Source: Eledone cirrhosa | Lineage: Eukaryota | DNA length: 64,000 nt | NCBI GenBank assembly: GCA_964016885.1 | Contig: OZ024743.1 | Span: 46,190,001 to 46,254,000, forward strand | Reading direction: 5' to 3' | Shown: positions 5,851 through 41,476 of the stretch, one piece after another | Position numbering within the stretch: the stretch's first letter is position 1 | How the letters are laid out: the number at the start of each line of letters is the position of its first letter | Position numbers and translations under genes: made by a program | Notes under the pieces: model-generated | What the model was told of the DNA's origin: nothing | Seen by the model: only the letters and a program-made list of their open reading frames with translations | Databases searched by the model: none

Positions 5851-5870
5851 GGATAGATTGATAGATATAT

Positions 5871-8800: not shown

Positions 8801-9062
8801 TATTCTATCACGGTTGACTATGCAGACTACTAGTTTGTGATCTGAATAGGCAACCATGTGCATTTGTGGACAGCTTAACATCTTCTTGTCCTTCTCTCTA
8901 ATGAAAAACCTATCTAGATACGATCTAGATGTCCCGCTGCGGTTTGCCCACGTCCACTATGGTGCAGTCGGGAAATTTAGTCGATATCTATCGGCCAGTT
9001 GGAATTGGCCGATTAGATTTTTGAGGCTGTTGCACCCCGCTCTACTGGCACATGCTCTCACA
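5871..9062 (-). mobile_element. Tx1-clade non-LTR retrotransposon copy 1, 5'-truncated and decayed
   Basis: Fragmented ORF2 (SDH, KSPGLDG, LDQSKAFDRV, QGCPLS, AYADD, CPRC...HC) with stops and frameshifts; (GATA)n on both sides. Confidence 0.92.
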
Positions 9063-9348
9063 TAGATAGATAGATAGATAGATATATTTCTTTTATTTGC
9101 CACTAGGGCATCAAAAGTGGGACAAGTACAAAGGGGGGAGTTTACACAAAAAGGCGTCCTCAATAAGGAGAAGGCAATAACAAAATATAAAAATAAAATA
9201 AGATATAACAAAAAATAAAATTTTTAACAAAATCCTCAATAGAGAGGAGGCGCCTTGGGGGGTCGCACACACCCCCGAAAAAAGTGTGCAACCCTTCTCC
9301 TCAGGAGCACAGAGAAGGGGTGCTCCCTTGGTCTTTCATCTTCCTCAC

Positions 9349-12300
9349 CTATAGTCTGATGTAGAGTGAAGGCCCATTCACACGGGCCATTCTCGCCACT
9401 TTCACCCATCTTTCATAGAAACGGCTGGGGTGCAGCACCTCTCTCTCCATCCTGATCCTTCTTCCGAAATGATATCGGAAGAAACGGACCAGTTGTTGGC
9501 CAGAGAGAAAGGTGCCCGACCTCAGTCCTTTCAGACGCGTCCACCATACAACCTCTTTCGCCATGGCTATTACGCACAGAAACACCGCTTCTGCTTCATC
9601 TTTGAAGGGGGGAGGCGGCTTGATCATTACAATAGACTCGGTGGTCAACCGGATCGGTCCCACCCTTGACAGCAGTTGTTCGACATAGCCCCACAGATCG
9701 GCTACGCCCGAGCAGTGTACTAATGCGTGTGCAACGGTTTCCTCGTCGCACACGCATCTGGGACAGATCTTTTTGGCGAGGTCCCTACCCGGGCGCCCGT
9801 GTCTGTAGAGCCTTTCTCGAACGGGTAAAGCCCCTCGGTAGCACTGCCAGGCCAGGGACTTCTGGAAGTTGTCCATAGGTCCCGGGCTGAATGTCCTACC
9901 GAACAGGCTGGCCAGTTCGTCCTCCTCCATGTCTAGGGCTTCTCCGAGGGCGTCGTCGCACCTGCTGCGTACCAGCCCTCTATAGAATGTTGCGGTGGAG
10001 TCTCCACTGATAACCGGATCCGCCTGCCAGAGGGCGGTGAGCGCCTGGGCACACTCAGTGTGCCAGGCGCCCAGTTTTCTCGGTCTTTGCTTGACCCAGG
10101 ATTGCAGCTCGGTGAGTGAGACGAGTCTGGGAAAGGTTCGTCTCACAAACGAGGCCCACACCGGTTGTCCGGTGAGGAATACGTAGAGGTGCCGTAGCCT
10201 TAATGCGTGTTTACGCATCATTAGCCACGGCATCCCCAGCCCTCCTTTCGAAGGGTGTTGACAGCAGATGGATCTCCTCACCATAGGAGCCCGCCTCTTC
10301 CAAAGGAATTGGAAGAGCGCGCGCTCCATCTTGGTGAGGGTTTCCCTTGGGCAGGGCACTACGGTCAGGCGGTAGTAGATGACGGACGCTATGTAGGTGT
10401 TTGCCACCTCCGCCCGACCTTTCAGGGATAGTTTGCAACTGGCCCACTTCTGGGTCAGTGCAAACACCCTGTTCGTAACCTCCGCCCAGTTTTTCTCCAC
10501 CTGGAGGTCCGGTCCGAACCAGACCCCGAGCAACTTCACCGGGCCCTCCGTCCAGCGTCCGACGACGCTATCGGAGGGCATCGGTCTGCCCCTCCACGTG
10601 CCGAGTTGCAAACCGATCGACTTGTCCCGGTTCAGCTTAGCCCCTGTGAACTTTTCGTACTCCTCCAGTAAGGTGCCGACCGCCTCGATTTCGGAGGCCG
10701 TCGACACCATTACTGTCACGTCATCGGCGTAGGCCGACACCGCTTTCCGCAATCCCGGTTCCAAAGGGATGCCCTGCAACAACTCCAACTTCCGCAGTAG
10801 TGGCTCGAGAGTCAACACATACAGAAGGGAGGAGAGAGGGCACCCTTGTCGGATGGACCGCGCGATTTTGAACGGCTCCGAGAGGTAGCCGTTCACCTTG
10901 ACCCTAGAGCAGATGCGGCTGCTGTGCATAGCAGTGATCCAGCCCCTGAAAACGGGTCCGAAGCCTGCCGCCGCTAGCACCGCATCCAGGTAACCATGGT
11001 CGACCCTATCGAACGCCTTAGATTGATCCAAGTTGATCAGAGCCCCACCAAAGCCGGGTTCGTTCCCAACCCTCTCTATGATGTATCGCATGAGGTGGAG
11101 GTTGTCATGGATGGACCTGGACGGGATAGCGCATGTCTGCGCATCTCCCACCAGGTTGCCCACGACAAGCGCCAACCTCTTTGCTAGCACCTTGGCCAAA
11201 ATCTGTAACTCTGTATTTAGCAGAGTTATGGGCCTGAAGTTACTTATTTCGTCCCCCTTGTTCTCGTCCTTCCTCACTAGCGTGACTACGCCCTTGGTCA
11301 CAGTACAGGGAATTCTCCCGTTCTGTTGCCAGTTGCAGTAGACCGCCTCGAGGAGATCGGGGAACAAGTCCGGCATAGCTAGATATAATTCGTAAGGAAG
11401 ACCATCGAGACCCGGGGATTTGCGTTTGCCGCATTGGCTCAGCACGTCCTCTATCTCAGCGGCCGAAATCGGTTCCTCGCAGGACTTCGCCTCCCTGTCC
11501 GAGAGGCGCGGCAGGCCGTCGAGGTATGGACCGAAGTCCACGTTCCCAACCGGCTCCCCGCCCCTCCCGAACAGTCGGGCAAAGTGCCTTTGAAAGGCCT
11601 CACACATCTGCTTAGGCTCAAGAATCGCCCGTCCATCCAGGTCTCGCAAAGACCGGATGGTGGATTTAGTTCCACTGTTGGCCTCTGTCACGCGGGCCCA
11701 GCTAACAGCTTTGGTCCCCTCGTTCCCTAGAGCACGTATTTTACTTCGGACAACGCAGCCTTCGTGCTTCGCGTCGAAAAACTGGCTCAAAGCCGTTCTC
11801 GACGCTAGCACTCTGGCCACGTCGCCGCTTCTAATTGCCTCTTCTACTCTATCTATTAGCTCCCTTTCCTTCCTATTCCTATCCGCAGCTAGAACCTTAC
11901 TAAATTCTATCGAGACTACTCTAATCTCTCTCTTTAGAGATACCCACCACCTGCTGTTGACGATCGCTCCAGTCAACCGTTCCTTAACTAACGTACTAAT
12001 CCGATTCCTGTAGGCTCTACTTGCCGGCAAGGACAAGTTGAGCTTCCAGTAACCGGGGCCCTGTCTATGAGTTCTGTCGAGGTTGACCATGCAGGTCACT
12101 AATTTGTGGTCTGAATAGCCAACAATGCGCATTTTTGGACAACTTAAAAAGTCCTTATCCTTAATTCTAACTAAGAACCTATCTAGGTACGACCTAGATG
12201 ATCCGCTACGATTTGCCCAAGTCCAGGTTGGCGCAGTCGGAAAATCTAGTCGATATCTATCGGCCAGGTCAAATCGACCGATTAACCCTTTGAGGCTATT

Positions 12301-12786
12301 ACACCCCTCTCTATCTGGGCAGGCCCCTACGTAGTCCCAGCGTGCATCTAGGATACCATTCCAGTCCCCCACTAATAGCAAGGAGCGGGACGTCCCTAGA
12401 AAAGTCTCCAGACGATGGAAGAAGTCCGGCCGCATTGACCCGAAAGGGCCGTAGGCGGCTACCAACCTAAACGCTCCGCCTTTACCACTGCCAAGGTCCA
12501 GAACCACTAGTCGACCCTCCGGGTCCAAATGTACCATCTGTGTTGCGAGACCCAGATGTTTTTGCAGCAGAACGACAACTCCACCCCCACCTCCGGGCTG
12601 ACAGAGAGATGCGTGCATCTCAAAGTCATCAAAGGTGGGGGCCAGCTGTCGCACGTTGCTGATCCGGGCCTCGCAAATAACCATCACATCTATACGTTGT
12701 GACCTGAGGTCATTTAGAAGCATTGCTTGCTTCCAAGTTGAGCCCAGGCCACGCGCATTTAAACAGCCTACTCTTAGCATAGCCAT
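9349..12786 (-). CDS. ORF2: APE endonuclease, reverse transcriptase and C-terminal CCHC zinc finger
   Basis: APE motifs CLNARGL, GDWN, YLDRF, SDH; RT motifs KSPGLDG, FRPITLLN, DQSKAFDRV, RQGCPLS, YADD; CPRC-x8-H-x4-C. The first ATG is at 12786 and the frame is open from 12810. Confidence 0.95.
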   Translation of the reverse strand: MAMLRVGCLNARGLGSTWKQAMLLNDLRSQRIDVMVICEARISNVRQLAPTFDDFEMHASLCQPGGGGGVVVLLQKHLGLATQMVHLDPEGRLVVLDLGSGKGGAFRLVAAYGPFGSMRPDFFHRLETFLGTSRSLLLVGDWNGILDARWDYVGACPDREGCNSLKGLIGRFDLADRYRLDFPTAPTWTWANRSGSSRSYLDRFLVRIKDKDFLSCPKMRIVGYSDHKLVTCMVNLDRTHRQGPGYWKLNLSLPASRAYRNRISTLVKERLTGAIVNSRWWVSLKREIRVVSIEFSKVLAADRNRKERELIDRVEEAIRSGDVARVLASRTALSQFFDAKHEGCVVRSKIRALGNEGTKAVSWARVTEANSGTKSTIRSLRDLDGRAILEPKQMCEAFQRHFARLFGRGGEPVGNVDFGPYLDGLPRLSDREAKSCEEPISAAEIEDVLSQCGKRKSPGLDGLPYELYLAMPDLFPDLLEAVYCNWQQNGRIPCTVTKGVVTLVRKDENKGDEISNFRPITLLNTELQILAKVLAKRLALVVGNLVGDAQTCAIPSRSIHDNLHLMRYIIERVGNEPGFGGALINLDQSKAFDRVDHGYLDAVLAAAGFGPVFRGWITAMHSSRICSRVKVNGYLSEPFKIARSIRQGCPLSSLLYVLTLEPLLRKLELLQGIPLEPGLRKAVSAYADDVTVMVSTASEIEAVGTLLEEYEKFTGAKLNRDKSIGLQLGTWRGRPMPSDSVVGRWTEGPVKLLGVWFGPDLQVEKNWAEVTNRVFALTQKWASCKLSLKGRAEVANTYIASVIYYRLTVVPCPRETLTKMERALFQFLWKRRAPMVRRSICCQHPSKGGLGMPWLMMRKHALRLRHLYVFLTGQPVWASFVRRTFPRLVSLTELQSWVKQRPRKLGAWHTECAQALTALWQADPVISGDSTATFYRGLVRSRCDDALGEALDMEEDELASLFGRTFSPGPMDNFQKSLAWQCYRGALPVRERLYRHGRPGRDLAKKICPRCVCDEETVAHALVHCSGVADLWGYVEQLLSRVGPIRLTTESIVMIKPPPPFKDEAEAVFLCVIAMAKEVVWWTRLKGLRSGTFLSGQQLVRFFRYHFGRRIRMEREVLHPSRFYERWVKVARMARVNGPSLYIRL

Positions 12787-12810
12787 GTTGGTGGTGAAGA
12801 GAAAAGGCAC

Positions 12811-14598
12811 TTACCTCTCTGCGTCCCGGGTATCGGGCTGCACAATTTCCATTAGGGTGGGGGATGGGTTGTTGGGTGGGGTGGTGGTTTGTGGAAGTGT
12901 GGGGGCATCAGTGTGTTGTGTGGTTGGGGAGCTTGGAGTTGTGTGGGTGTTTGGGGAGGGGGTGGGATAGTTTTTTAGGAGGACGCGGTTAATGGGCCCG
13001 ACGCAGGGGGGACCCACGTCCTCTTTAAAATTGTTTTTTAAAGTTTTATAGGTGTCCTGTGGGGCCTTAATCATTTTGAGGTGGGGGAAATCCCCTGCCT
13101 GGGTGAAGTTAGGTCCTTGTGTTTTTATTAGATTGTTGTTGTACACAATGTTTAACAGTTTTTTGTTTCTTGTATTTATGTATGTGTATGCATGTTTTTG
13201 TTTTTGTGTGGTGTTTTTTGTTTGCTGTTGTGAGCTCTTTTGTGTTGGTGTCAGTGTTATGTTTTGGGGAGGGTTTTTTTTCATTTGTGTGTCTGAGGTG
13301 TGTTTTCTTTTTTTTCTTTTGATTGTGTGGAAGTGCTCCTCCTCGTCTGACGACGAACTAGGGTCATCTTCCGCGTTGGAGGGGAGGGGTATATTTTCGG
13401 GTTGTGTTTGCGGTACGGGTGTTTTGGAAATTGTTTTTGTTTTTTGAGTGGAGGGGATGGGTTGGACATTGTTTTGTTTTGGTTTGAGCTGTGGTGGTTG
13501 TTTTTGTAGTGGTAGTTGTGGTGATTGTGTTGGTTGTGCAGTTGTTGGTGGTGTAGGCAGGATTGGGGTTTTCTTATTAAGTTGGGGACAGACAGCCTTC
13601 AGGTGACCTCTGGTTCCGCAGAGGTAACACGAGGGCCGTCTACCCTCAACGGTAATGTTGATGAAGGTTAGATCATCCAGTATGACGCGTTCAGGGATCT
13701 GGGCGATCCTTTCGGGCCTCATTTGAACTACAAGTTCGAGGCTCGTTCCACTGAACGCGTCACCCGATGCCTTTCCCATGGACACCAGCATGTCATCCTC
13801 CAGGTCCAGAAAACCTGTCAAAACCCACCATATGTCCATAATCGGCAGGATGGTGTGGATTTTTATTTTTTGTGTTCTTCTACCCATGTACGTAGGGTAG
13901 AAGGTGTATGCGGTGGATGTGATTGGTTTGATGGACAGTTTCACTGCTGTGTCCCTGTCCTTCATGAGAATGGATAGACTCCCGTAGAGTCTATCCTTCT
14001 GAATGAAGGTGATGTCCTTCATGACGTCTTTTAAAACCAGCTCTATCTCGCTCTGTGATGGTTGAGCTGGTTTTTTACTTTTGTTCGAGATTGTCCTAAA
14101 CATGACCGTGTTTAGGAGTCTCTGGCTTTTTAGTTCCGGGGGGGAATGGATTGTGAATGAACCATTTTCCCCGTACACTATATATTTTTTCGCATCCGCC
14201 AATAGCTCCTTCGCTTTTGTTATATCTACTGGCAGATAGTCGAGGGTTTTCCTTGTCGTCTCGGCGAAGGAGAAATTTTGTTTGTTTGTGTTGTTGTTGT
14301 CGTTGGTGGTGTTGTTGTTATCATTGTTGTTGTTGTCACCGTTATTGGTCTTGTTGTTGTTATTGTTATTGTTATTGGTGTTGCTTTCGTCCGTCGCATT
14401 GTTGTTGTTGTTGCTGTTGCTGCTGGTTCTTTGGGTTGTTGCCATGGCAACGTCAAGTTGTCGGTTAACAGGTGGAGAGAATTCTTCCTCTGGCTGACCT
14501 ATCTTCTTGACCTCTGCTACTGTGACAGTGGCAGGGGGAAGCTGTAAGTTCATCTTCCCCTTTCCTCCTTCGAATTTTGGTGAAGAAGCTTCGGCCAT
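12811..14598 (-). CDS. ORF1: nucleic-acid-binding protein with a CCHC zinc knuckle
   Basis: 595 aa; VEGRRPSCYLCGTRGHLKAVC knuckle, Asn-rich N-terminus, Pro/Gln/Thr-rich C-terminus, basic KRKKRK patch; lies upstream of ORF2. Confidence 0.9.
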   Translation of the reverse strand: MAEASSPKFEGGKGKMNLQLPPATVTVAEVKKIGQPEEEFSPPVNRQLDVAMATTQRTSSNSNNNNNATDESNTNNNNNNNNKTNNGDNNNNDNNNTTNDNNNTNKQNFSFAETTRKTLDYLPVDITKAKELLADAKKYIVYGENGSFTIHSPPELKSQRLLNTVMFRTISNKSKKPAQPSQSEIELVLKDVMKDITFIQKDRLYGSLSILMKDRDTAVKLSIKPITSTAYTFYPTYMGRRTQKIKIHTILPIMDIWWVLTGFLDLEDDMLVSMGKASGDAFSGTSLELVVQMRPERIAQIPERVILDDLTFINITVEGRRPSCYLCGTRGHLKAVCPQLNKKTPILPTPPTTAQPTQSPQLPLQKQPPQLKPKQNNVQPIPSTQKTKTISKTPVPQTQPENIPLPSNAEDDPSSSSDEEEHFHTIKRKKRKHTSDTQMKKNPPQNITLTPTQKSSQQQTKNTTQKQKHAYTYINTRNKKLLNIVYNNNLIKTQGPNFTQAGDFPHLKMIKAPQDTYKTLKNNFKEDVGPPCVGPINRVLLKNYPTPSPNTHTTPSSPTTQHTDAPTLPQTTTPPNNPSPTLMEIVQPDTRDAER

Positions 14599-14808
14599 TT
14601 AAAAAAATATTGACTTTTCAACAAGAAAAAACTTTTTTTTAACTATTTCGCCTAAAGGCGTAGAATATTTTGAGAGAATGACCAGATCAAAGTTTGACCT
14701 GGCAGTCCCTCTACAAAATGGTACAAAAATTAAAGTTATCAGACAAGAATTTCTATAGAAATTTAAACAGAACATACTCAGCAAGTTATACGCGTGTGTC
14801 CATCCCAG

Positions 14809-14972
<164 letters not shown>

Positions 14973-17772
14973 GTTTCTTTTATTTGCCACTAGGGCATCA
15001 AAAGTGGGACAAGTACAAAGGGGGGAGTTTACACAAAAAGGCGTCCTCAATAAGGAGGAGGCAATAACAAAATATAAAAATAAAATAAGATATCACAAAA
15101 AATAAAATTTTTAACAAAATCCTCAATAGAGAGGAGGCGCCTTGGGGGGTCGCACACACCCCCGAAAAAAGTGTGCAACCCTTCTCCTCAGGAGCACAGA
15201 GAAGGGGTGCTCCCTTGGTCTTTCATCTTCCTCACCTATAGTCTGATGTAGAGTGAAGGCCCATTCACACGGGCCATTCTCGCCACTTTCACCCATCTTT
15301 CATAGAAACGGCTGGGGTGCAGCACCTCTCTCTCCATCCTGATCCTTCTTCCGAAATGATATCGGAAGAAACGGACCAGTTGTTGGCCAGAGAGAAAGGT
15401 GCCTGACCTCAGTCCTTTCAGACGCGTCCACCATACAACCTCTTTCGCCATGGCTATTACGCACAGAAACACCGCCTCTGCTTCATCTTTGAAGGGGGGA
15501 GGCGGCTTGATCATTACAATAGACTCGGTGGTCAACCGGATCGGTCCCACCCTTGACAGCAGTTGTTCGACATAGCCCCACAGATCGGCTGCGCCCGAGC
15601 AGTGTACCAATGCGTGTGCAACGGTTTCCTCGTCGCACACGCATCTGGGACAGATCTTTTTGGCGGGGTCCCTACCCGGGCGCCCGTGTCTGTAGAGCCT
15701 TTCTCGAACGGGTAAAGCCCCTCGGTAGCACTGCCAGGCCAGGGACTTCTGGAAGTTGTCCATAGGTCCCGGGCTGAATGTCCTACCGAACAGGCTGGCC
15801 AGTTCGTCCTCCTCCATGTCTAGGGCTTCTCCGAGGGCGTCGTCGCACCTGCTGCGTACCAGCCCTCTATAGAATGTTGCGGTGGAGTCTCCACTGATAA
15901 CCGGATCCGCCCGCCAGAGGGCGGTGAGCGCCTGGGCACACTCAGTGTGCCAGGCGCCCAGTTTTCTCGGTCTTTGCTTGACCCAGGATTGCAGCTCGGT
16001 GAGTGAGACGAGTCTGGGAAAGGTTCGTCTCACAAACGAGGCCCACACCGGTTGTCCGGTGAGGAATACGTAGAGGTGCCGTAGCCTTAATGCGTGTTTA
16101 CGCATCATTAGCCACGGCATCCCCAGCCCTCCTTTCGAAGGGTGTTGACAGCAGATGGATCTCCTCACCATAGGAGCCCGCCTCTTCCAAAGGAATTGGA
16201 AGAGCGCGCGCTCCATCTTGGTGAGGGTTTCCCTTGGGCAGGGCACTACGGTCAGGCGGTAGTAGATGACGGACGCTATGTAGGTGTTCGCCACCTCCGC
16301 CCGACCTTTCAGGGATAGTTTGCAACTGGCCCACTTCTGGGTCAGTGCAAACACCCTGTTCGTAACCTCCGCCCAGTTTTTCTCCACCTGGAGGTCCGGT
16401 CCGAACCAGACCCCGAGCAACTTCACCGGGCCCTCCGTCCAGCGTCCGACGACGCCATCGGAGGGCATCGGTCTGCCCCTCCACGTGCCGAGTTGCAAAC
16501 CGATCGACTTGTCCCGGTTCAGCTTAGCCCCTGTGAACTTTTCGTACTCCTCCAGTAAGGTGCCGACCGCCTCGATTTCGGAGGCCGTCGACACCATTAC
16601 TGTCACGTCATCGGCGTAGGCCGACACCGCTTTCCGCAATCCCGGTTCCAAAGGGATGCCCTGCAACAACTCCAACTTCCGCAGTAGTGGCTCGAGAGTC
16701 AACACATACAGAAGGGAGGAGAGAGGGCACCCTTGTCGGATGGACCGCGCGATTTTGAACGGCTCCGAGAGGTAGCCGTTCACCTTGACCCTAGAGCAGA
16801 TGCGGCTGCTGTGCATAGCAGTGATCCAGCCCCTGAAAACGGGTCCGAAGCCTGCCGCCGCTAGCACCGCATCCAGGTAACCATGGTCGACCCTATCGAA
16901 CGCCTTAGATTGATCCAAGTTGATCAGAGCCCCACCAAAGCCGGGTTCGTTCCCAACCCTCTCTATGATGTATCGCATGAGGTGGAGGTTGTCATGGATG
17001 GACCTGGACGGGATAGCGCATGTCTGCGCATCTCCCACCAGGTTGCCCACGACAAGCGCCAACCTCTTTGCTAGCACCTTGGCCAAAATCTGTAACTCTG
17101 TATTTAGCAGAGTTATGGGCCTGAAGTTACTTATTTCGTCCCCCTTGTTCTCGTCCTTCCTCACTAGCGTGACTACGCCCTTGGTCACAGTACAGGGAAT
17201 TCTCCCGTTCTGTTGCCAGTTGCAGTAGACCGCCTCGAGGAGATCGGGGAACAAGTCCGGCATAGCTAGATATAATTCGTAAGGAAGACCATCGAGACCC
17301 GGGGATTTGCGTTTGCCGCATTGGCTCAGCACGTCCTCTATCTCAGCGGCCGAAATCGGTTCCTCGCAGGACTTCGCCTCCCTGTCCGAGAGGCGCGGCA
17401 GGCCGTCGAGGTATGGACCGAAGTCCACGTTCCCAACCGGCTCCCCGCCCCTCCCGAACAGTCGGGCAAAGTGCCTTTGAAAGGCCTCACACATCTGCTT
17501 AGGCTCAAGAATCGCCCGTCCATCCAGGTCTCGCAAAGACCGGATGGTGGATTTAGTTCCACTGTTGGCCTCTGTCACGCGGGCCCAGCTAACAGCTTTG
17601 GTCCCCTCGTTCCCTAGAGCACGTATTTTACTTCGGACAACGCAGCCTTCGTGCTTCGCGTCGAAAAACTGGCTCAAAGCCGTTCTCGACGCTAGCACTC
17701 TGGCCACGTCGCCGCTTCTAATTGCCTCTTCTACTCTATCTATTAGCTCCCTTTCCTTCCTATTCCTGTCAT
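14973..17772 (-). mobile_element. Tx1-clade copy 3, 5'-truncated, nearly identical to copy 2
   Basis: Uninterrupted partial ORF2 (15236-17772) differs from copy 2 at only a few residues; same 3' UTR; flanked by (GATA)n. Confidence 0.95.
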
Positions 17773-17842: not shown

Positions 17843-17843
<1 letters not shown>

Positions 17844-20188
17844 TTCTTTATTTGCCACAAGGGCGCACAAGAAAAAGCGATAATACAAAGACATATGGCG
17901 GGGATTTTACATATAGGTATATGAAAATAAAACTATTAATAAAATAACAAATAACAATTGATATCCCCAATAGGGGGAGGCGTTACACATGGGTTGTACA
18001 CACCTCGACAAAATGTACAACCCTCATCTCCAGGAGCACCAAGAGTGAGTACTCCCTTCCTCTCTTCCTCTTTTTCCTCAACCTACAGGCTTATATAGAG
18101 AGAAGGCCCAACCACTCGGGCCATCCTTGCCACATTCACCCACCTTTTATAAAAATTTGCTGGGGTACAGCACCTCTCTCTCCATCCTGAATCTTCTTCC
18201 AAAATGATATTTGAAAAAACGAATCAGTTGTTCGCCGGAGAGAAAGGTGTCTGACCTCAGCCCTTTTAACCTCGTCCACCATATAACCTCTTTCACCATA
18301 GCCATAACACATAGGAAAACCGCCTCTCCCTTGTTTTTGAAGGAGGGTGGCGGTTTGATCATGACAATTGACTCGGTGGTTAACTGCATTGGTCCCACCC
18401 GCGACAATAGTCGTTCTACATAGCCCCACAGGTCGGTAACACCCGGGCAGTGTACAAATGCGTGCGCGACGGTTTCCTCGTCGCGCACGCATCTCGGACA
18501 GATCTTTTTCGAAGGGTCCCTACTCGGCGCCTGTGTCTGTAGAGCTTGTCTCGAACCGGTAGAGCTCCTCGGTAGCACTGCCAGGCCAGGGACTTTTGGA
18601 AGTTGTCCATTGGTCCCGGGCGGAAGGTCCTACCGAACAGACTGGTCAGTTCGTCCTCCTCTACGCCTAGAGTTTCTCCGAGCGTGTCGTCGCACTTGCT
18701 GCGGACCAACACTCTATAGAATGTCGAAGTGGAGTCTCCACTGATCGCCGGGTCCGTTTGCCAGAGGACTGTGAGCGCCTGAGCACATTCGATGTGCCAG
18801 TCGCCCATTTTCCTCGGTCTTTGCTTGACCCAGGACTGCAGCTCGGTCAGCGAAACGAGTCGTGGGAAGGCTCGCCTCACGAACGGGGCCCACACCGGTT
18901 GTCTGGTGAGGAATACGTGGAGGTGCCGCAGCCTGAGCGCGTGTTTGCGCATCGTAAGCCACGGCATCCCCAGCCCTCCGTTTGAAGGGTGTTGGCAGCA
19001 GATGGATCTTCTCACCAAAGGAGCCCGTTTCTTCCAAAAGAATTGGAAGAGTGCGCGCTCCATTTTGGTGAGCGTTTTGGCTGGATAAGGCACGACGGTC
19101 AAGCGGTAGTAGATGACGGACGCTATAAAAGTGTTCGCCACCCCCGCTCGACCTTTCAAGGATAGTTTGCACTCGGCCCACTTCTGGGTGAGCGCAAACA
19201 CCTTGGCCATCACCTCGTTCCAGTTCTTCTCCACCTGGAGGTCCGGACCAAACCAGACCCCGAGCAGCTTTACCGGTCCTTCCGTCCAGCGTCCGACGAT
19301 GCCATCGGAAGGCATCGGTTTGCCTCTCCACGTTCTGAGTTGCAAACTGACGGATTAGTCCCGGTACAGCTTCGCTCCTGTGAACCTTTCGTATTCCTCC
19401 AATAAGGTGCCGATCTCCCCGATTTGCGAGGTGCTTGACACCATTACTGTCACGTCGTCAGCGTATGCCGACACCGCTTTTCGCAGTCCCGGTTCCAAAG
19501 GGATGCCATGCAATAGCTCCAACTTCCGCAGTAGTGGCTCAAGAGTCAGTACGTGCAGAAGGGAGGAGAGAGGGCATCCCTGTCGGATGGATCGCGTGAT
19601 ATGGAACGGCTCCGAGAGGTAGCCGTTGACCTTGACCCTTGAGCAGATGTTGCTGTTATGCATTGCAGCAATCCAGCCCCTGAAAACGGGACCGAAGCCT
19701 GCCGCCTCGAGCACCGCATCCAGGTAACGATGGTCAACCCTATAGAAAGCCTTAGACTGATCCAAGTTGATCAGGGCCCCACCGAAGCCGGGTTTACACC
19801 CTACCCTCTCTATGATGTATCGCATGAGGTGGAGGTTGTCGTGTATGGTCCTGGTCGGGATTGCGCATGTATGCGCTTCTCTCACCAGGTTTTCGACGAC
19901 AAGCGCCAGCCTCTTTGCCAACACCTTGGCCAAAATCTGTAACTCTGTGTTGAGCAGACTTATGGGCCGGAAGTTGCCTATGTCATCCCCCTTGTTCTCG
20001 TCCTTCCTGACTAACGTGATTACGCCCTTGGTCACAGAACTGGGAATTCTCCCGTTCTGCTGCCAGTTGCAGTAGACCACTTCCAGGAGACCGGAGAACA
20101 AGTCCGGCATTGCTACGTAAAATTCGTAGGGTAGACCGTCGAGACCCGGATATTTGCGTTTGCCGCATTGGCTCAGCGCGTCCCCTAT
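17843..20188 (-). mobile_element. Tx1-clade copy 4, different subfamily, 5'-truncated, disrupted
   Basis: RT and zinc-finger fragments (19355-20110, 18416-19345, 18147-18578) with a stop and a frameshift; distinct 3' UTR resembling copy 1. Confidence 0.92.
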
Positions 20189-20197
20189 ATAGATAGA

Positions 20198-21190
20198 TTT
20201 CTATTTATTGCCACTATTTATTAATACAAGGGGGGGGGGGGTTACCCAAAAAGGCGAGTAAAGAAAACAAACAACAAATATAAAATTAACAATAAAGTCC
20301 TCAATAGGGAGGGGGCGTTTGGGGGGTCGCACACACCCCCGAAAAAAGTGTGCAAGCCCTTCTCCTCAGGAGCACAGAGAGAGGGTGCTCCCTCGTTCCT
20401 TCCTCTTTTCCACCTACAGGCTGATGTAGAGAGAAGGCCCATTCACACGGGCCATTCTCGCCACTTTCACCCACCTTTCATAAAAACGACTGAGGTTGAG
20501 CATCTCTCTCTCTCCATCCTGATCCTTCTTCTGAAATGATATCGGAAGAAACGGATCAGTTGTTGGCCAGAGAGAAAGGTGCCTGACCTGAGTCCTTTCG
20601 GACGCGTCCACCATACAACCTCTTTGACCATGGCTATTACGCACAGAAACACCGCCTCTCCTTCATTTTTGAAGGGGGCGGCTTAATCGTTACAATGGCC
20701 TCGGTTGTCAACCGGATCAGTCCCACCCGTGATAGCAGTCGTTCGACATAGCCCCACAGATCGGCTACGCCCGAGCAGTGTACCAATGCGTGTGCAACGG
20801 TTTCCTCGTCGCACACGCATCTGGGACAGATCTTTTTGGCGGGGTCCCTACCCGGGCGCCCGTGTCTGTAGAGCTTTTCTCGAACGGGTAGAGCCCCTCG
20901 GTAGCACTGCCAGGCCAGGGACTTCTGGAAGTTGTCCATAGGTCCCGGACTGAATGTCCCACCGAACAGGCTGGCCAGTTCGTTTTCCTCCATGTCTAGG
21001 GCTTCTCCGAGGGCGTCGTCGCACCTGTTGCGTACCAGCCCTCTATAGAATGTCGCGGTGGAGTCTCCACTGATAACCGGGTCCACCTGCCAGAGGGCCG
21101 TGAGCGCCTGGGCACACTCAGTGTGCCAGGCGCCCAGTTTTCTCGGTCTTTGCTTGATCCAGGATTGCAGCTCGGTGAGTGAGACGAGTC
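20198..21190 (-). mobile_element. Tx1-clade copy 5, ~1 kb 3' fragment with a visible TSD
   Basis: C-terminal ORF2 fragment with frameshifts; flanked by the direct repeat GTCCCCTATATAGATAGAT (20180-20198 and 21188-21206). Confidence 0.92.
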
Positions 21191-21487
21191 CCCTATATAG
21201 ATAGATAGATAGATAGATAGATAAGTTTCTTTTATTTGCCACTAGGGCATCAAAAGTGGGACAAGTACAAAGGGGGGAGTTTACACAAAAAGGCGTCCTC
21301 AATAAGGAGGAGGCAATAACAAAATATAAAAATAAAATAAGATATAACAAAAAATAAAATTTTTAACAAAATCCTCAATAGAGAGGAGGCGCCTTGGGGG
21401 GTCGCACACACCCCCGAAAAAAGTGTGCAACCCTTTTCCTCAGGAGCACAGAGAGGGGGTGCTCCCTCGTTCCTTCCTCTTTTCCAC

Positions 21488-24400
21488 CTACAGGCTTATG
21501 TAAAGAGAAGGCCCATTCACACGGGCCATTCTCGCCACTTTCAGCCACCTTTCATAAAAACGACTGGGGTGCAGCACCTCTCTCTCCATCCTGATCCTTC
21601 TTCCGAAATGATATCGGAAGAAACGGACCAGTTGTTGGCCAGAGAGAAAGGTGCCTGACCTCAGTCCTTTCAGACGCGTCCACCATACAACCTCTTTCGC
21701 CATGGCTATTACGCACAGAAACACCGCCTCTGCTTCATCTTTGAAGGGGGGAGGCGGCTTGATCATTACAATAGACTCGGTGGTCAACCGGATCGGTCCC
21801 ACCCTTGACAGCAGTTGTTCGACATAGCCCCACAGATCGGCTACGCCCGAGCAGTGTACCAATGCGTGTGCAACGGTTTCCTCGTCGCACACGCATCTGG
21901 GACAGATCTTTTTGGCGGGGTCCCTACCCGGGCGCCCGTGTCTGTAGAGCCTTTCTCGAACGGGTAAAGCCCCTCGGTAGCACTGCCAGGCCAGGGACTT
22001 CTGGAAGTTGTCCATAGGTCCCTGGCTGAATGTCCTACCGAACAGGCCGGCCAGTTCGTCCTCCTCCATGTCTAGGGCTTCTCCGAGGGCGTCGTCGCAC
22101 CTGCTGCATACCAGCCCTCTATAGAATGTTGCGGTGGAGTCTCCACTGATAACCGGATCCGCCTGCCAGAGGGCGGTGAGCGCCTGGGCACACTCAGTGT
22201 GCCAGGCGCCCAGTTTTCTCGGTCTTTGCTTGACCCAGGATTGCAGCTCGGTGAGTGAGACGAGTCTGGGAAAGGTTCGTCTCACAAACGAGGCCCACAC
22301 CGGTTGTCCGGTGAGGAATACGTAGAGGTGCCGTAGCCTTAATGCGTGTTTACGCATCATTAGCCACGGCATCCCCAGCCCTCCTTTCGAAGGGTGTTGA
22401 CAGCAGATGGATCTCCTCACCATAGGAGCCCGTCCCTTCCAAAGGAATTGGAAGAGCGCGCGCTCCATCTTGGTGAGGGTTTCCCTTGGGCAGGGCACTA
22501 CGGTCAGGCGGTAGTAGATGACGGACGCTATGTAGGTGTTCGCCACCTCCGCCCGACCTTTCAGGGATAGTTTGCAACTGGCCCACTTCTGGGTCAGTGC
22601 AAACACCCTGTTCGTAACCTCCGCCCAGTTTTTCTCCACCTGGAGGTCCGGTCCGAACCAGACCCCGAGCAACTTCACCGGGCCCTCCGTCCAGCGTCCG
22701 ACGACGCCATCGGAGGGCATCGGTCTGCCCCTCCACGTGCCGAGTTGCAAACCGATCGACTTGTCCCGGTTCAGCTTAGCCCCTGTGAACTTTTCGTACT
22801 CCTCCAGTAAGGTGCCGACCGCCTCGATTTCGGAGGCCGTCGACACCATTACTGTCACGTCATCGGCGTAGGCCGACACCGCTTTCCGCAATCCCGGTTC
22901 CAAAGGGATGCCCTGCAACAACTCCAACTTCCGCAGTAGTGGCTCGAGAGTCAACACATACAGAAGGGAGGAGAGAGGGCACCCTTGTCGGATGGACCGC
23001 GCGATTTTGAACGGCTCCGAGAGGTAGCCGTTCACCTTGACCCTAGAGCAGATGCGGCTGCTGTGCATAGCAGTGATCCAGCCCCTGAAAACGGGTCCGA
23101 AGCCTGCCGCCGCTAGCACCGCATCCAGGTAACCATGGTCGACCCTATCGAACGCCTTAGATTGATCCAAGTTGATCAGAGCCCCACCAAAGCCGGGTTC
23201 GTTCCCAACCCTCTCTATGATGTATCGCATGAGGTGGAGGTTGTCATGGATGGACCTGGACGGGATAGCGCATGTCTGCGCATCTCCCACCAGGTTGCCC
23301 ACGACAAGCGCCAACCTCTTTGCTAGCACCTTGGCCAAAATCTGTAACTCTGTATTTAGCAGAGTTATGGGCCTGAAGTTACTTATTTCGTCCCCCTTGT
23401 TCTCGTCCTTCCTCACTAGCGTGACTACGCCCTTGGTCACAGTACAGGGAATTCTCCCGTTCTGTTGCCAGTTGCAGTAGACCGCCTCGAGGAGATCGGG
23501 GAACAAGTCCGGCATAGCTAGATATAATTCGTAAGGAAGACCATCGAGACCCGGGGATTTGCGTTTGCCGCATTGGCCCAGCACGTCCTCTATCTCAGCG
23601 GCCGAAATCGGCTCTTCGCAAGACTTCGCCTCCCTGTCCGAGAGGCGCGGCAGGCCGTCGAGGTATGGACCGAAGTCCACGTTCCCAACCGGCTCCCCGC
23701 CCCTCCCGAACAGTCGGGCAAAGTGCCTTTGAAAGGCCTCACACATCTGCTTAGGCTCAAGAATCGCCCGTCCATCCAGGTCTCGCAAAGACCGGATGGT
23801 GGATTTAGTTCCACTGTTGGCCTCTGTCACGCGGGCCCAGCTAACAGCTTTGGCCCCCTCGTTCCCTAGAGCACGTATTTTACTTCGGACAACGCAGCCT
23901 TCGTGCTTCGCGTCGAAAAACTGGCTCAAAGCCGTTCTCGACGCTAGCACTCTGGCCACGTCGCCGCTTCTAATTGCCTCTTCTACTCTATCTATTAGCT
24001 CCCTTTCCTTCCTATTCCTATCCGCAGCTAGAACCTTACTAAATTCAATGGAGACTACTCTAATCTCTCTCTTTAGAGATACCCACCACCTGCTGTTGAC
24101 GATCGCTCCAGTCAACCGTTCCTTAACTAACGTACTAATCCGATTCCTGTAGGCTCTACTTGCCGGCAAGGACAAGTTGAGCTTCCAGTAACCGGGGCCC
24201 TGTCTATGCGTTCTATCAAGGTTGACCATGCAGGTCACCAACTTGTGGTCTGAATAGCCAACCATGAGCATTTCTGGACAACTTAAAAAGTCCCTGTCCT
24301 TATTTCTAACTAAAAATCTGTCTAGGTACGATCTAGATGATCCGCTGCGATTTGACCAAGACCAGGTTGGCACCGTCGGAAAATCTAGTCGAAATCTATC

Positions 24401-24925
24401 GGCCAGGTCAAATCGGCCGAGTAACCCCTTGAGGCTGTTGCACCCCTCTCTATCGGGACATGCCCCTGCATAGTCCCAACGTGCATCCAGGATACCATTC
24501 CAATCCCCCATTAAAAGCAGGGAACGGGACGTCCCTAGAAAAGACTCCAGACGCTGGAAAAAGTCGGGCCGCTCTGTCCCAAAAGGGGCATATGCGGCTA
24601 TCAGCCTAAGGGCTCTACCTTCACCACTGCCAAGGTCCATCACCACCAGTCGACCCCCTGGGTCCAAGTGAACTATCTGTGTTGCAAGGCCCATATGTTT
24701 TTGCAGCAGAACGACAACCCCACCCCCACCTCCGGGCTGACAGAGAGATGCGTGCATCTCAAAGTCGTCAAAGGTGGGGGCTAGCTGTCGCATGCTGCTG
24801 ATCCGGGCCTCGCAGATAACCATCACATTTATAGATTGTGACCTGAGGTCATTTAGAAGCATTGCTTGCTTCCAAGACGAGCCCAGGCCACGCGCATTTA
24901 GACACCCTACTCTTAGCACAGCCAT
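21488..24925 (-). CDS. ORF2: APE endonuclease, reverse transcriptase and zinc finger
   Basis: Same motif set as copy 2; intact frame (open from 24949, first ATG at 24925). Confidence 0.95.
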   Translation of the reverse strand: MAVLRVGCLNARGLGSSWKQAMLLNDLRSQSINVMVICEARISSMRQLAPTFDDFEMHASLCQPGGGGGVVVLLQKHMGLATQIVHLDPGGRLVVMDLGSGEGRALRLIAAYAPFGTERPDFFQRLESFLGTSRSLLLMGDWNGILDARWDYAGACPDREGCNSLKGLLGRFDLADRFRLDFPTVPTWSWSNRSGSSRSYLDRFLVRNKDRDFLSCPEMLMVGYSDHKLVTCMVNLDRTHRQGPGYWKLNLSLPASRAYRNRISTLVKERLTGAIVNSRWWVSLKREIRVVSIEFSKVLAADRNRKERELIDRVEEAIRSGDVARVLASRTALSQFFDAKHEGCVVRSKIRALGNEGAKAVSWARVTEANSGTKSTIRSLRDLDGRAILEPKQMCEAFQRHFARLFGRGGEPVGNVDFGPYLDGLPRLSDREAKSCEEPISAAEIEDVLGQCGKRKSPGLDGLPYELYLAMPDLFPDLLEAVYCNWQQNGRIPCTVTKGVVTLVRKDENKGDEISNFRPITLLNTELQILAKVLAKRLALVVGNLVGDAQTCAIPSRSIHDNLHLMRYIIERVGNEPGFGGALINLDQSKAFDRVDHGYLDAVLAAAGFGPVFRGWITAMHSSRICSRVKVNGYLSEPFKIARSIRQGCPLSSLLYVLTLEPLLRKLELLQGIPLEPGLRKAVSAYADDVTVMVSTASEIEAVGTLLEEYEKFTGAKLNRDKSIGLQLGTWRGRPMPSDGVVGRWTEGPVKLLGVWFGPDLQVEKNWAEVTNRVFALTQKWASCKLSLKGRAEVANTYIASVIYYRLTVVPCPRETLTKMERALFQFLWKGRAPMVRRSICCQHPSKGGLGMPWLMMRKHALRLRHLYVFLTGQPVWASFVRRTFPRLVSLTELQSWVKQRPRKLGAWHTECAQALTALWQADPVISGDSTATFYRGLVCSRCDDALGEALDMEEDELAGLFGRTFSQGPMDNFQKSLAWQCYRGALPVRERLYRHGRPGRDPAKKICPRCVCDEETVAHALVHCSGVADLWGYVEQLLSRVGPIRLTTESIVMIKPPPPFKDEAEAVFLCVIAMAKEVVWWTRLKGLRSGTFLSGQQLVRFFRYHFGRRIRMEREVLHPSRFYERWLKVARMARVNGPSLYISL

Positions 24926-24949
24926 GTTGGTGGTAAAGAGAAAAGGCAC

Positions 24950-26596
24950 TTACCTCTCTGCGTCCCGGGAAACGGGCCGCTCAATTTCCATGCTGGTTGG
25001 GGATGGGTTGTTGGGTGGGGTGGTGGTTTGTGGAAGTGAAGGGGCATCGGTGTGTTGTGGGGTTGGGGTGTTTGTCGTTGAGTGGGTGTCTGGGTGGGGT
25101 GGGGGGGTGAAATTTTTTAGGAGGACGCGGTTGATTGGTTTGGCGCAGGGGGGGCCCACGTCCTCCGTGAAATTTATTTTCAGTGTTTTGTACAAGTGCA
25201 TTGGGACTTTTATCATTTTCAAATGAGGTAGTCCCACAGCAGTTATAAAGTTTGGCCCTTCAGTTTGGACCGAAGGGTTTGCTGAAATTGTTTTCCGTAA
25301 TTCTTTGTTGTCTGTGTTCATGTATGTGTATTGTAAGGTCTTTTTTTGTGTAGCAGTTAGTGTTGTGTGACAGGGAGGGGTGGTTTGTGTGTAGTTTGTG
25401 TTCTCTTGGGGGGGGGTTAAAGTTAACATGTGTGTCTGTGGTGCGTCTCCTCTTCTTTCTTTTTACTTGTTGGAAGGGATCTTTTTCGTCTTGCGACGAA
25501 AGAGGTTCGTCTTCCTTGTTGGGTGGGAGGGGTATGTTTTCTGGTAGTGTTTGCGGTGTGCGTGTTTTTGTATTTGTTTTGGGTGGGGAGGGATTGGGTG
25601 GGACAGTATTCTGTGTTATTTTTTCACGTGTTTGTTGTTGTTGTTGTGGTGGTGGTGGTGGTGGTGGGGTTGTTGGTTTTTGTTGTTGTTGTGGTTGTTT
25701 TTGTTGTTGTAGTTGGGGTGGTGTTGGTGTTGGTAGCAGTGTTTTTTTCTGTGTGAGCTGGGGACAGGCAGCCCTCAGGTGACCTCTATTGCCACAGAGG
25801 TAACAGGAGGGACGCCTACCCTCCACAATAATGTTGAGGTGGGTACGGTCATCCAGCATGACGCGCTCAGGGATTTGGGCGATGCGTTCTGGCCTTATTT
25901 GGGTCAGAACTTCGAGGCTCGTTCCACTGAACGCGTCGCCGGATGCCTTCCCTATTGAGATGAGGTTGTCCTCGTCTAAATTGAGGAAACCGGTTAGTAA
26001 CCACCAGTAGTTTATGTTTGGGGTGATGGTGGTTATCCATATCCTCTGGGTTTTTTTACCCATGTAGGTGGGGAAGAAGGTGTAGTGTGTGGACCGAATT
26101 GGCGACACAGAGTATTTTTTTGCCGCCAATTCGTCTTTCATCAATATGGATAAACTCCCATAGAGTTTATCCTTTTGTATGAAAGTGATGTCTCTCATCG
26201 CGTCTTTCAAGACTAACTGAGTTTCTGCTTGAGATGGTTGCGCTGGTTTCTTTGTTTTATTTAAAATTGTTCGGAATACGACAGTTCGTAATTCCGTCTG
26301 TCTTTTTAGCTCCGGAGGTGAATGTATAGAAAACGATCCGTTTTCGCCAAAAGACACATATTTCTTGGCTTTTTCCAGCATTTCTTTTGCTTTTGAAATA
26401 TCTTCCAGCACATAAGCGACTGATAATTTAGCCGTTTGTGCAAAAGATATTTTGTTTTCGTTTTGGATATTAGTATTGTTTTGTTTCTCGTCGTTTGAGT
26501 TGTTTTCATCTTTGTTGTTGTTGTTGTCTTTCTCGTTTCGTGTGTGGATACTTGTGACGTTTGTGTTGTTGTTGTTTTTGCTGTCTTTATTGTTGC

Positions 26597-26627
<31 letters not shown>

Positions 26628-26813
26628 GTTTTCAAATTCTTGTGTAGTTGTGGCTACATCTAGTGGTCGGTCAACAGGTGAAGACAATTCTTCCTCTCTC
26701 TGACCTCTGCCTTTGGCATCTGCTGCTGTGACAGTGGCAGGGGGAAGCTGTGAGTATGACTTCCCCTTTCCTTCTTTGATTGATGGTGAAGATGCTTCAG
26801 CCATTTTTCTCAA
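24950..26813 (-). pseudogene. ORF1 with a single frameshift
   Basis: Two overlapping frames (25260-26813 with CYLCGNRGHLRAAC, and 24950-25429 matching the copy-2 C-terminus); the switch is at or near the G9 run at 25408-25416. Confidence 0.85.
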
Positions 26814-27038
26814 AATAGGGTTTTTCGAAGTTTTTCGAAAGATAAAATGTTCACAATACTATTTCGCCCAAAGGCGCAGAATATTTTGAGAGACCGACCA
26901 GATCAAAATTTGACCTGGCAGTCCCTCTACAAAATGATACAAAAATGAAAGTTTACAGTTTACAATTTCCGTATGAATTTAAACAAAAACTTACCGAGCG
27001 AGCTCAGCACATGTGTCCATCGTAGAGAGATAGATAGG

Positions 27039-28309: not shown

Positions 28310-30080
28310 TAAATCCCGACCAAACCCATACACAACCTCCACCTCATGCGATACATCATAAAGAGGGTAGGGTGTAAACCTGGCTTCGGTGGGGCTTTGA
28401 TCAATTTAGATCTATCGTAAGTTTTCGATTGGGTCGACCGTCGATACCTGGAGGCTGTCTTCAAGGCAGCTGTCAACGGTCCAGTCATCAGTGGCTGGAT
28501 TGCTGCAATGCACAGCGGCATCTGCTCGGCGGTCAAAGCAATGCCCATCGGAATCTTTGGGACGAGGTTACGAAGAAGTTAGCCATTCTCACACAGAAAT
28601 GAGCCAAGAGGAAGCTCTCCCTGAAACGTCGGGTGGAGGTAGCGAACACGTATATCGTGCCCATCATCTATTACCACCTGACCGTCGTGTCTTACCCCCG
28701 TTTGCGCCTCACCAAATTGAAACGGCACCTCTTCAACTTCTTTGGAGGGGACGGGTTCCGTTGGTGAGGTGATCCATATGCTGCCAGCACCCTCAACGTG
28801 GAGGGCTGGGCATGCCGTGGATAATGATGTGAAAACATACGCTGAGGCTGCGGCATCTCCAGATATTCTGCCTAAACGGTGAACGGGCGTGGTCGCCTTT
28901 TGTGAGACAGGCCTTTCCACAGCGCGTCTCTTTGACTGAGCTGCAGTCCTGGATCAAGAAGAGACCGAGACTAGGTGCGTAGCATCTGGAATGTTGCCAG
29001 GCGCTCACTGCTCTCTACTAGGCAGGCAATGTGGTCAGTGGAACTTCCACTCTCGAGTTCTGTAAAGGATTAGTGGTACGCAAGTGCGACGACTCGCTCG
29101 GAGAGGCTCTCGATGTCGATGAAGTCGAACTGACAAATCTGTTCCAAAGGACTTTCAATAACGCCCAGAATCCCTCGCTTAGCAGTGCTACCGATGATGG
29201 GGGACACTGCCGGGTCGAAATAAACTCTACAGGAACGGAAGTGCTGTCAGGCGGACCTGCTAGAGATGCGCGCAAAGCGACGAAACCGTTCTGCACGCAC
29301 TTGTCCAGTATCCATGCATTACTGACTTGTGGGATTATGTTTAACAGCTATTGTTGCATGTAGGACAGACCCGGCTATTGACCGAGTCCATAAGGAAGAT
29401 CGCCTCATCACCTTCTTTTGGCTGAGAAGGGCAGGCAGGTTTTCTCTGTCTGGTGGCGGTAGCGAAAGAGGTTTTGTAGTGGACCAGATTGAAAGGACTG
29501 AAGACAGACACTTTTCTCTTCGGCCTTCCAACATCGACTTCTTCAAGTTTCACTTGGGAATAAAGGTGAGGGTGGAGAGAGAAATGCTGCCCCCCCCCCC
29601 CCCAGTACAGTTGCTAAAGGGTGGGTGATTGTGGCGAGAATGCCCCGTGTGAATGGGCCTACTCTGAGCATGTGGCTGTTGGTTAGTTAATATGAGGAGA
29701 GGTGTACCCTTCCCGGGTGCCTTCGAAGCGTCGGTTGGTTCAGGATTGGTGGGGTACCCGAGTTGCCTTTGGGTGGTTCGCACCCCACCTTCTATTGGGG
29801 AATTTATTTTTTTATATTTTTATATATTTTTATTGTTAATTGTTTTGTTATTGTGTATTCTAACTCGATGTTATTGTCCCCCCACCCACCCCACTGTCCC
29901 TGTCTTTGTGTTGCCCTCTATATGTCGGCCCTTGTGGTCAATAATTGAAACCATTATTTTTCCTTTGTTTCATTTTTTTGTTATATCCTTTGTTTTTGTT
30001 TTATGTTTTTGTTTTTTCTCACAGAAACACCCGTCCTTAATGTTATGCTTTGTGTCAACCCTTGTGGTTAATAAAGAAAA
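28310..30080 (+). mobile_element. Older degenerate Tx1-like fragment (RT to 3' UTR), not in (GATA)n
   Basis: Relics of NLHLMRYII, PGFGGALINLD, GGLGMPW and LTELQSW with many stops and deletions; ends GTGGTTAATAAAGAAA. Confidence 0.85.
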
Positions 30081-30531
30081 CATTATTTATTTTATATACA
30101 ATTACTGTATTAATACATAGATATAAATATTTGCTTACTGTGGAAGACAATATTTTATATTGAAGTCAACACCTCTGTGAAATTAAGTTGACTTTTCATG
30201 ACATTTAACTTGCACTTGTGTCTCTGTTTGTACAATTCACTTAATGGAATTATATAAGATGTTTCTGTTATCACTTTAAAAAGACAATGTTGACATTTTT
30301 TTGATGTTGCATTGACTAAATGTAAATTGAATACAGTTTCATTATAGATTATAATCTGCGACAAATTGGCTGAGTCCTTAGAACGTCGGAGAGAACACTT
30401 TACAGTATTCATTCCGGGTTTCTATCCTCGTGGTTTAAATCCAGCCAAGGTCAACTTTGTCTTTCATCCTTTCAAGGTCGATAACAAAAATGTCCCAGTA
30501 CTGGAGTCAAATCTTCCTCTATATCTCCTTC

Positions 30532-37013: not shown

Positions 37014-37019
<6 letters not shown>

Positions 37020-37642
37020 TCCTATATCATCAACAAAAATCACCTAGAGAACATCAAAATTGCTCCTGTAGAATCAAAAGTGAATGCTCATTACAAGGTA
37101 AATGCAACACCAAAGCCATTGTATATGCGGCTAAAGTGACAACCATCAGCAACAACCAACCAGCCACCAGTGAACGATATGTGGGTATGACGCAAGACAA
37201 ATTCAAAACGCGTTATTACTCACATGTCGCATCCTTTCGACATCCAGAAAAAAGATTTACAACAGCTCTGGCTAGCAGAATATGGGATTTGAAAGACCAA
37301 GGTATCCAATATAAATTGGATCGGTCAATTTTGAACCAATCTAAAGAATATGCAAGAGGAACAAGAAGATGCACGCTCTGCATAAATGAAAAATATTGGA
37401 TTTTGCAAAACCTTAAATCACCAAAGACCTGCCTAAACACAAAGACAGAAATTTTCACCAGTTGCCCACACATGAAATCATACCTGCTTTCCAGCTCATA
37501 TAAACTTAACACACTTTCAGATACTTATCCTCCATAAGCTCTTATTATTCTCTTTAAGACTACCTTTTCTGATTTACTTTCATTTTTAACCTTATTATTA
37601 ATTTCATTTTTATTTTTATTTTTATTTTTATTTTTATTTTTA

Positions 37643-39131: not shown

Positions 39132-39407
<276 letters not shown>

Positions 39408-39486
39408 GATAAGCAGAACAAGTAAAATTCAATCAATTTTTCAAAATACATTAAAAAATATAATATAAATATTTACCTCTTCTAGT

Positions 39487-39569
39487 GGCCCTTACTGATC
39501 AGTTTCGCTTTGTAAAACCTCATAAATCCGATGGATTTATGATGGAAAACCAAAGCTCATCAGAGAAGC
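39487..39569 (-). ncRNA. Type-I hammerhead ribozyme, unit 1
   Basis: TTCT-CTGATGA-GCTTTG...TCATAAATCC-ATC-GGATTTATGA...CAAAGC-GAAAC-TGATCA-GTA-AGGG; canonical core and palindromic ACTGATCAGT stem III. Confidence 0.88.
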
Positions 39570-41420: not shown

Positions 41421-41476
41421 ATATATATATATATAAAAAAAAAATAAACCAAAGAAGCCTTCAATACATCAAAAGT

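Follow-up and report, generated by a model that had tools for sequence, protein, structure and literature searches.

A direct repeat flanking a 5'-truncated LINE copy in a (GATA)n array of Eledone cirrhosa as a probable target-site duplication

Results

The window, the whole stretch of DNA that was analysed (64,000 nt of contig OZ024743.1 of Eledone cirrhosa), harbors a (GATA)n tract that is interrupted by six copies of a LINE. All are on the minus strand, within 5870 to about 27021, and the 3' end of every copy adjoins a (GATA)n stretch. The GATA stretches of the array measure 78, 25, 169, 75, 10, 35, and 62 nt. The features of the array are as follows.

5791-27085, plus strand: whole array, a single (GATA)n tract interrupted by six LINE copies in the same orientation
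5870-9061, minus strand: copy 1, 5'-truncated, ORF2 broken, most diverged (76-82% to the others), 5' microhomology ATAG (4 nt)
9087-14804, minus strand: copy 2, full-length LINE, ORF1 at 12811-14598 and open ORF2 at 9349-12810
14974-17769, minus strand: copy 3, 5'-truncated, 99% identical to copy 2, 5' junction with a few additional bases
17843-20188, minus strand: copy 4, LINE 5'-truncated to start from ORF2 residue 444, frameshifts, blunt 5' join
20180-20198, plus strand: left repeat, of which 20180-20188 are the final 9 nt of the truncated 5' end of copy 4
20189-20198, plus strand: remainder of the left repeat, 10 nt of GATA repeat, T20198 being common to the copy 5 3' end
20198-21190, minus strand: copy 5, 993-nt 5'-truncated LINE covering the ORF2 end (residues 887-1144, reading frame disrupted), 3' UTR of a separate type
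21188-21206, plus strand: right repeat, in which GTC (21188-21190) fits element and target (microhomology) and CCCTAT (21191-21196) is foreign to copy 5
21207-21225, plus strand: residual GATA tract from the right repeat to the copy 6 3' end
21226-27021, minus strand: copy 6, full-length, ORF1 at 25260-26858 (weak CCHC) and open ORF2 at 21488-24949

None of the six copies carries a poly(A) tail. The copies end in GAAA or AGAA, followed by at most two further bases and then (TATC)n, and in all six AATAAA stops 4-5 nt before the element end. The start TTTCT, read on the plus strand, is common to all six. The copies fall into sub-lineages and are 76-99% alike. Copies 2 and 6 are ~99% alike in the 3' 2.8 kb, share 209 of 240 endonuclease residues, and differ at roughly 20-40% of ORF1 bases. 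Judged from sequence, the 5' half appears to have been swapped between sub-lineages that are both located in the GATA repeat. A GATATA imperfection lies to the left of copies 1 and 2 and to the right of copy 2 (5860-5869, 9076-9086, and 14809-14819), and may be a preferred nick site or an element-borne end. The longest tract (14809-14973) contains two GATAAATA imperfections, 24 nt apart, which likely arose by slippage duplication.

ORF2 of copies 6 and 2 matches the Pfam families RVT_1 (E 5e-26) and Exo_endo_phos (E 2e-7 and 4e-8), with weak matches to zf-RVT that fall under the curated cut-off (E 3e-5 and 6e-5). ORF2 also contains GDWN, SDH, YADD, and CX2CX8HX4C, which we take to be the relevant motifs. 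Among solved structures, human L1 ORF2p is the closest (E 3e-49, residues 7-856), followed by R2 proteins at E 5e-19 or weaker, in a narrow comparison where the 11 matches listed comprise only L1 and R2. The element thus has the characters of an APE-type non-LTR retrotransposon of the L1 group, with an N-terminal endonuclease, a reverse transcriptase (RT), and a C-terminal zinc finger. ORF1 has sub-threshold matches to zf-CCHC (E 0.033 and 0.0027) and none to Transposase_22 or RRM up to E 1; its Atlas look-alikes (0.90-0.92) contain zf-CCHC, RRM_1, or ZCCHC3 RNA-binding domains. ORF1s of the CCHC/RRM type are consistent with Tx1, according to the available part of PMC5203782. Tx1 family names (Tx1L, Kibi, Koshi, Keno) are on none of the matches listed, and Tx1 membership is putative. 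Among named proteins, the closest is one of Argonauta hians, 67% identical over the RT region. Searches of metagenome and viral contigs with ORF2 found no related locus. None of the best 80 of 515 relatives has (GATA)3 or (TATC)3; these are 25-42% identical in their best segment and are too distant to speak on the target.

All six close copies lie inside the GATA repeat, all at one locus. Two diverged and broken relatives (65-76% DNA identity) occur on the plus strand at 28313-30130 and about 53000-55400, and end in AATAAA-GAAAA-like sequence with no adjoining (TATC)n. The sole other (TATC)n run in the window (48358-48385, 28 nt) is element-free. The window also contains a 488-bp unit present in 2.8 copies at 99% identity (39401-40759) and an inverted repeat of 293 nt (99%) with a 26-nt loop (41439-42050). 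ORF pieces at 34855-35463 and 37019-37537 presumably belong to a Penelope-type RT and a GIY-YIG endonuclease, which they resemble. A short repeated element with a recurring translated motif follows (TACA)n tracts at 50076-51370, 51679-52076, and 62130-62279, and is possibly another microsatellite-associated element.

Copy 5 is flanked by a 19-nt direct repeat. A search of the whole window found two exact matches to GTCCCCTATATAGATAGAT, at 20180-20198 and 21188-21206, and no third match with up to two mismatches allowed; the first-pass annotation had given both the positions and the letters correctly. The match cannot be extended in either direction, and none of 100 shuffled sequences contained two matches. 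The repeat adjoins both ends of copy 5 and holds pre-existing sequence that is not part of the element, and is therefore best read, as had been proposed, as the target-site duplication (TSD) of copy 5.

The origin of the bases inside the repeat bears directly on this reading. At the site homologous to the copy 5 5' junction, copies 2, 3, and 6 have GAGTCTGGGAA (10123, 16010, and 22262), that is, GAGTC followed by TGGGAA. Because these copies continue otherwise, CCCTAT past 21190 is not element sequence at that position. At the copy 4 junction, the homologous sequence is GTCCTCTAT followed by CTCAG in copies 2, 3, and 6, and GTCCCGTAT followed by CTCAG in copy 1. The tblastn alignment of copy 4 to ORF2 begins at 20188 (residue 444). 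In addition, 27 contigs of sequencing run X4 diverge from the reference at 20188 and continue with CTCAGCGG (CTCAG). Together, these three lines indicate that 20180-20188 is coding sequence of copy 4, and that the GATA repeat starts at 20189. The suggestion that CCCTATA derives from the copy 4 junction holds for CCCTAT; the last A opens the repeat. CCCTAT was also considered as original target DNA and rejected, as it is in-frame ORF2 of copy 4. The bases GTC fit both the element and the copy 4 side, which supports the proposed 5' microhomology; three nucleotides would match by chance with a probability of 0.018.

A TSD that overlaps the end of copy 4 predicts a piece of copy 4 beyond an unrelated insert when copy 5 is inserted after copy 4. 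ORF2 bases of copy 4 do recur beyond the unrelated insert, and the order proposed earlier, with copy 5 the later insertion, is supported. The order applies to copies 4 and 5 only; the data give no order of copy 5 relative to copy 6. It is likely that the GTCCCCTATATAGATAGAT pair is a TSD generated by target-primed reverse transcription when copy 5 inserted after copy 4.

An assembly artefact or a chance match could in principle produce the same arrangement. The chance of a match is 2.6e-4 for the six non-repeat bases CCCTAT and 4.7e-6 for all nine including GTC. Reads from 4 of 11 sequencing runs were compared with the stretch 19600-21600. The LINE family is abundant in X4, X1, and X9. The mean depth over part of the copy 5 3' UTR (bin 20203-20269) is 3,474 in X4, 10 in X1, and 0 in X2, and the X4 contig depth is 781 at 20196 versus 2,294 at 20246, values that are summed depth and not copy counts. 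Copy 5 has private indels and a 3' UTR type that is present in X4, which argues against an artefact, and a repeat of 19 nt is far below read length, such that a misjoin would be unlikely to make one. In favor of an artefact, no read across either junction is among the rows listed (15/180 joints, 24/1,606 loose ends, 24/44,570 pieces). These rows also contain no empty allele. This comparison omitted 21189-21233, which includes the right junction, as repeat, and its result neither supports nor refutes the junction. Artefact and chance together are considered very improbable.

Over the shared ORF2 end, copy 5 is 83.9% identical to copy 4 and 95.0% identical to copy 6. At 113 sites, copy 4 differs from a base common to copies 3 and 6. 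Copy 5 has the copy 3/6 base at 100 of these, the copy 4 base at 10, and neither base at 3, and the 15 diagnostic sites closest to the copy 5 junction include none of the copy 4 type. The distal 3' UTR of copy 5 is unlike that of all other copies, and its type occurs once in the window. The 84% identity, the diagnostic sites, and the distinct 3' UTR led to rejection of a duplication of copy 4 as the source of copy 5. The same data weigh against an event at the DNA level, in which copy 4 and its junction would have been tandemly duplicated and then altered by an internal deletion or by recombination at GTC. Recombination is known in the family, from a patch in copy 6 (21455-21563), and leaves such an event with some standing, yet the closer match of copy 5 to copy 6 (95%) than to copy 4 (84%), its different 3' UTR, and the lack of copy 4 bases in the last 15 diagnostic sites make it highly unlikely. 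The patch surrounds the ORF2 stop and is of the copy 5 type at 14 of 15 diagnostic sites; outside it, copy 6 agrees with copies 2/3 at 36 of 36 diagnostic sites. Gene conversion or an RT template switch are candidate origins of the patch.

Alternatively, CCCTAT may be a templated insertion, made by an RT template jump or by end-joining that copied the flank. Copy 5 would still have inserted after copy 4. A templated insertion would leave identical letters at the 5' junction, copies 2, 3, and 6 have extra bases at their 5' junctions, and extra nucleotides are reported for 14.6% of 5'-truncated L1s in the available text of PMC2912911. However, the copied segment is direct and flush with copy 5 at either end, it leaves the repeat in phase, and its length is that of an ordinary TSD. 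A templated insertion is therefore improbable, and a TSD is the preferred reading.

The length of the duplication can be bounded. The annotation had put the TSD at 16-19 bp; the upper limit stands, and the lower limit becomes 15 nt, since GTC and T20198 are each ambiguous, T20198 being also the first base of the TTTCT common to the six copies. Only the end of the duplication inside copy 4 is fixed, and the other end lies within 10 nt of pure repeat. The additional claim that the (TATC) beyond the 3' end is target DNA and not a tail is not established by a boundary in pure repeat, as up to 10 nt may be RNA-templated in register. An in-register RNA tail would yield identical letters, so the junction only bounds tail and stagger: the physical stagger could be 6-19 nt, and any tail of copy 5 is capped at 10 nt.

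It is possible, with somewhat less than an even chance, that the same insertion occurred in the same order with a shorter stagger (6-14 nt), and that the GATA to the left of copy 5 derives partly or wholly from an (AUCU)n tail. Cleavage usually follows AATAAA by 10-30 nt. With AATAAA 4-5 nt from the element end and no poly(A), cleavage would fall in the repeat, and transcripts would carry some read-through (AUCU)n. Exact flank matches of 11 nt for copy 2 and 9 nt for copy 6 fit a shorter stagger, and short TSDs are commoner in 5'-truncated L1s, as stated in the available part of PMC2912911. On the other side, 15-19 nt agrees with the L1 peak and with the TSD of SINEU-3, and the repeat stays in phase on either side, which fits the absence of a tail, although an in-register tail predicts the same. 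The shorter stagger qualifies only the length and is compatible with the TSD reading.

The other junctions are less informative. Copy 2 has AGATAGATATA on both flanks, an 11-nt exact match with a TA imperfection that is a candidate TSD. Copy 6 has a GGTA imperfection ~10 nt past its 5' end that is absent from the left flank, and its best exact flank match is 9 nt. A family-wide TSD of 16-19 bp, as first suggested, is thus not shown by the other junctions that were measured. The matches of copies 2 and 6 may mislead as a result of upstream-derived extra bases, which full-length elements can bear (PMC2912911, available part), later substitution, or an element-borne TA. TA is found again at the 3' junction of copy 1, in two X4 contigs (depth 55/781), and at 20196 in 19 of 19 X9 reads with three starts, and may therefore belong to the element. 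With a target-borne TA instead, the TSD of copy 1 would be about 21-25 nt with two mismatches, as read by eye. Copies 1, 3, and 4 were rejected as clean TSD measures, as their flanks are pure or degraded repeat. A family TSD range of 9-25 nt may be compatible with the junctions seen; that copy 5 is the one cleanly informative junction counts, like the short matches of copies 2 and 6, against the TSD reading.

The contribution of insertion to the tract is probably minor. Each insertion had been estimated to duplicate about four GATA units, but the repeat part of the copy 5 duplication is only 9-10 nt, and the other 6-9 nt come from copy 4. That an insertion renews its own target follows from any TSD; the extent is limited, as copy 5 added only those 9-10 nt of repeat. 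Six TSDs of about 17 nt would account for roughly 100 of the 454 nt of tract. Given the small gain of repeat per event and tracts of 10-169 nt, slippage likely dominates tract length.

Discussion

The direct repeat around copy 5 is real and is likely the footprint of an ordinary insertion mechanism. The locus directly displays the two repeats and their make-up, the six-copy array, its orientation, and, in copies 2 and 6, coding capacity for an endonuclease and an RT. A sequence of events that fits these features can be proposed. ORF2p would nick the GATA strand no more than 10 nt into the repeat that borders the copy 4 5' end, and the freed ...AGAT-3' end would prime reverse transcription at the 3' end of the RNA. 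The primer would probably pair with read-through (AUCU)n, because AATAAA is 4-5 nt from the element end and poly(A) is absent from all copies. The cDNA would stop growing early, after about 1 kb. The second strand would be opened in the non-repeat DNA of copy 4, 6-9 nt from its end, where GAC would pair with the cDNA end, and gap filling would yield the duplication. A second opening in non-repeat DNA is likely governed by distance or microhomology. R1Bm is different in this respect: both of its strands are cut by sequence (PMC1919474, available part), including a sequence-specific second cut, whereas the second opening for copy 5 would lie outside the repeat.

A broader model is put forward tentatively, and is as a whole more doubtful than probable. 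A hitherto undescribed octopod L1/Tx1 family with recent activity would nick (GATA)n specifically, prime on read-through (AUCU)n in place of poly(A), and open the second strand 15-19 nt away regardless of sequence. Each insertion would lengthen and double the target, leading to arrays of several sub-lineages with exchanged endonuclease/ORF1 halves, and GATATA would perhaps be a preferred nick site passed on via successive TSDs.

The targeting mechanism of microsatellite-inserting elements is described as not well understood (PMC3812793, available part), and the TSD is normally invisible for elements in pure microsatellites. The copy 5 junction provides an upper bound of 19 nt, limits the tail to 10 nt or less, orders two insertions, and implies that opening of the second strand needs no GATA sequence. 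Copies 2 and 6, with open ORF1 and ORF2, are a source of an endonuclease whose GATA preference could be assayed. The gain is a single data point and, possibly, one target type not seen before. Duplications of about 15 bp, microhomology at the 5' end, the reading of TSDs from nested copies, and target renewal are already published.

A GATA-targeting L1/Tx1 family in octopods may be novel, which a single locus cannot establish. In the available part of PMC4494074, a target-specific Tx1 family is one in which >20% of genome-wide copies are flanked by one sequence type. An annotation of Octopus vulgaris lists 13 recently active L1-Tx1 families; the available main text contains neither "GATA" nor "target site" (PMC13282606). 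Neither "Tx1" nor "GATA" was found in PMC9115989, and the available parts of PMC13295347 and PMC9004415 serve as background only. Titles and the starts of abstracts revealed no GATA-targeting LINE in a literature search whose scope lay outside Repbase, Kojima and Fujiwara 2004, and the supplements of PMC4494074, and this result falls short of showing absence from print.

Comparison with known systems

The array resembles L1 in TSD size, 5' truncation, 5' microhomology or extra bases, and the use of an older element to reveal the empty site. The available part of PMC2912911 gives an L1 TSD peak of 14-16 bp and microhomology in 5'-truncated copies, and names the reading of target sites from nested insertions TANT. 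Unlike L1, which primes on poly(A) at TT/AAAA, the array copies lack poly(A) and end at (TATC)n.

Microsatellite targets on record include ACAY, AC, TC, TTC, and TAA (PMC3812793, available part), and further Tx1 targets are the crocodilian (TTCC)n/(TTTC)n (PMC4494074, likewise). Kibi, which targets (TC)n, Koshi, which targets (TTC)n, and crocodilian Tx1 share with the array element an ORF2 with APE and RT, affinity to the L1 group, an ORF1 of (in the array element, putative) CCHC type, and copies in a single orientation within a microsatellite. The host, here an octopod, and the target are different: six of six junction pairs are in (GATA)n and not in the (TC)n or (TTC)n of Kibi and Koshi, and (GATA)n/(TATC)n is absent from the targets in the available parts of PMC4494074 and PMC3812793.

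SINEU-3, which is mobilised by Tx1, has a 16-bp TSD and tandem insertions (PMC4494074, available part). The SINEU-3/Tx1-Mar system is similar in its sequential Tx1-driven insertions at one site and its tandem copies that sandwich a TSD. In contrast, its target is a Mariner element with unique sequence, and every TSD is visible, whereas in the GATA array a TSD is visible only where it overlaps a neighbor or an imperfection. Finally, insertion that preserves its target and creates a new one has been stated for R1 arrays and TE dimers (10.1101/158386, available part). As in R1 arrays, the target is kept and remade, and head-to-tail copies have differing 5' truncations. R1 differs in its 28S rDNA target and in a 33-nt TSD in the array; the spacers of the GATA array are microsatellite of 10-169 nt, and its copies come from several sub-lineages.
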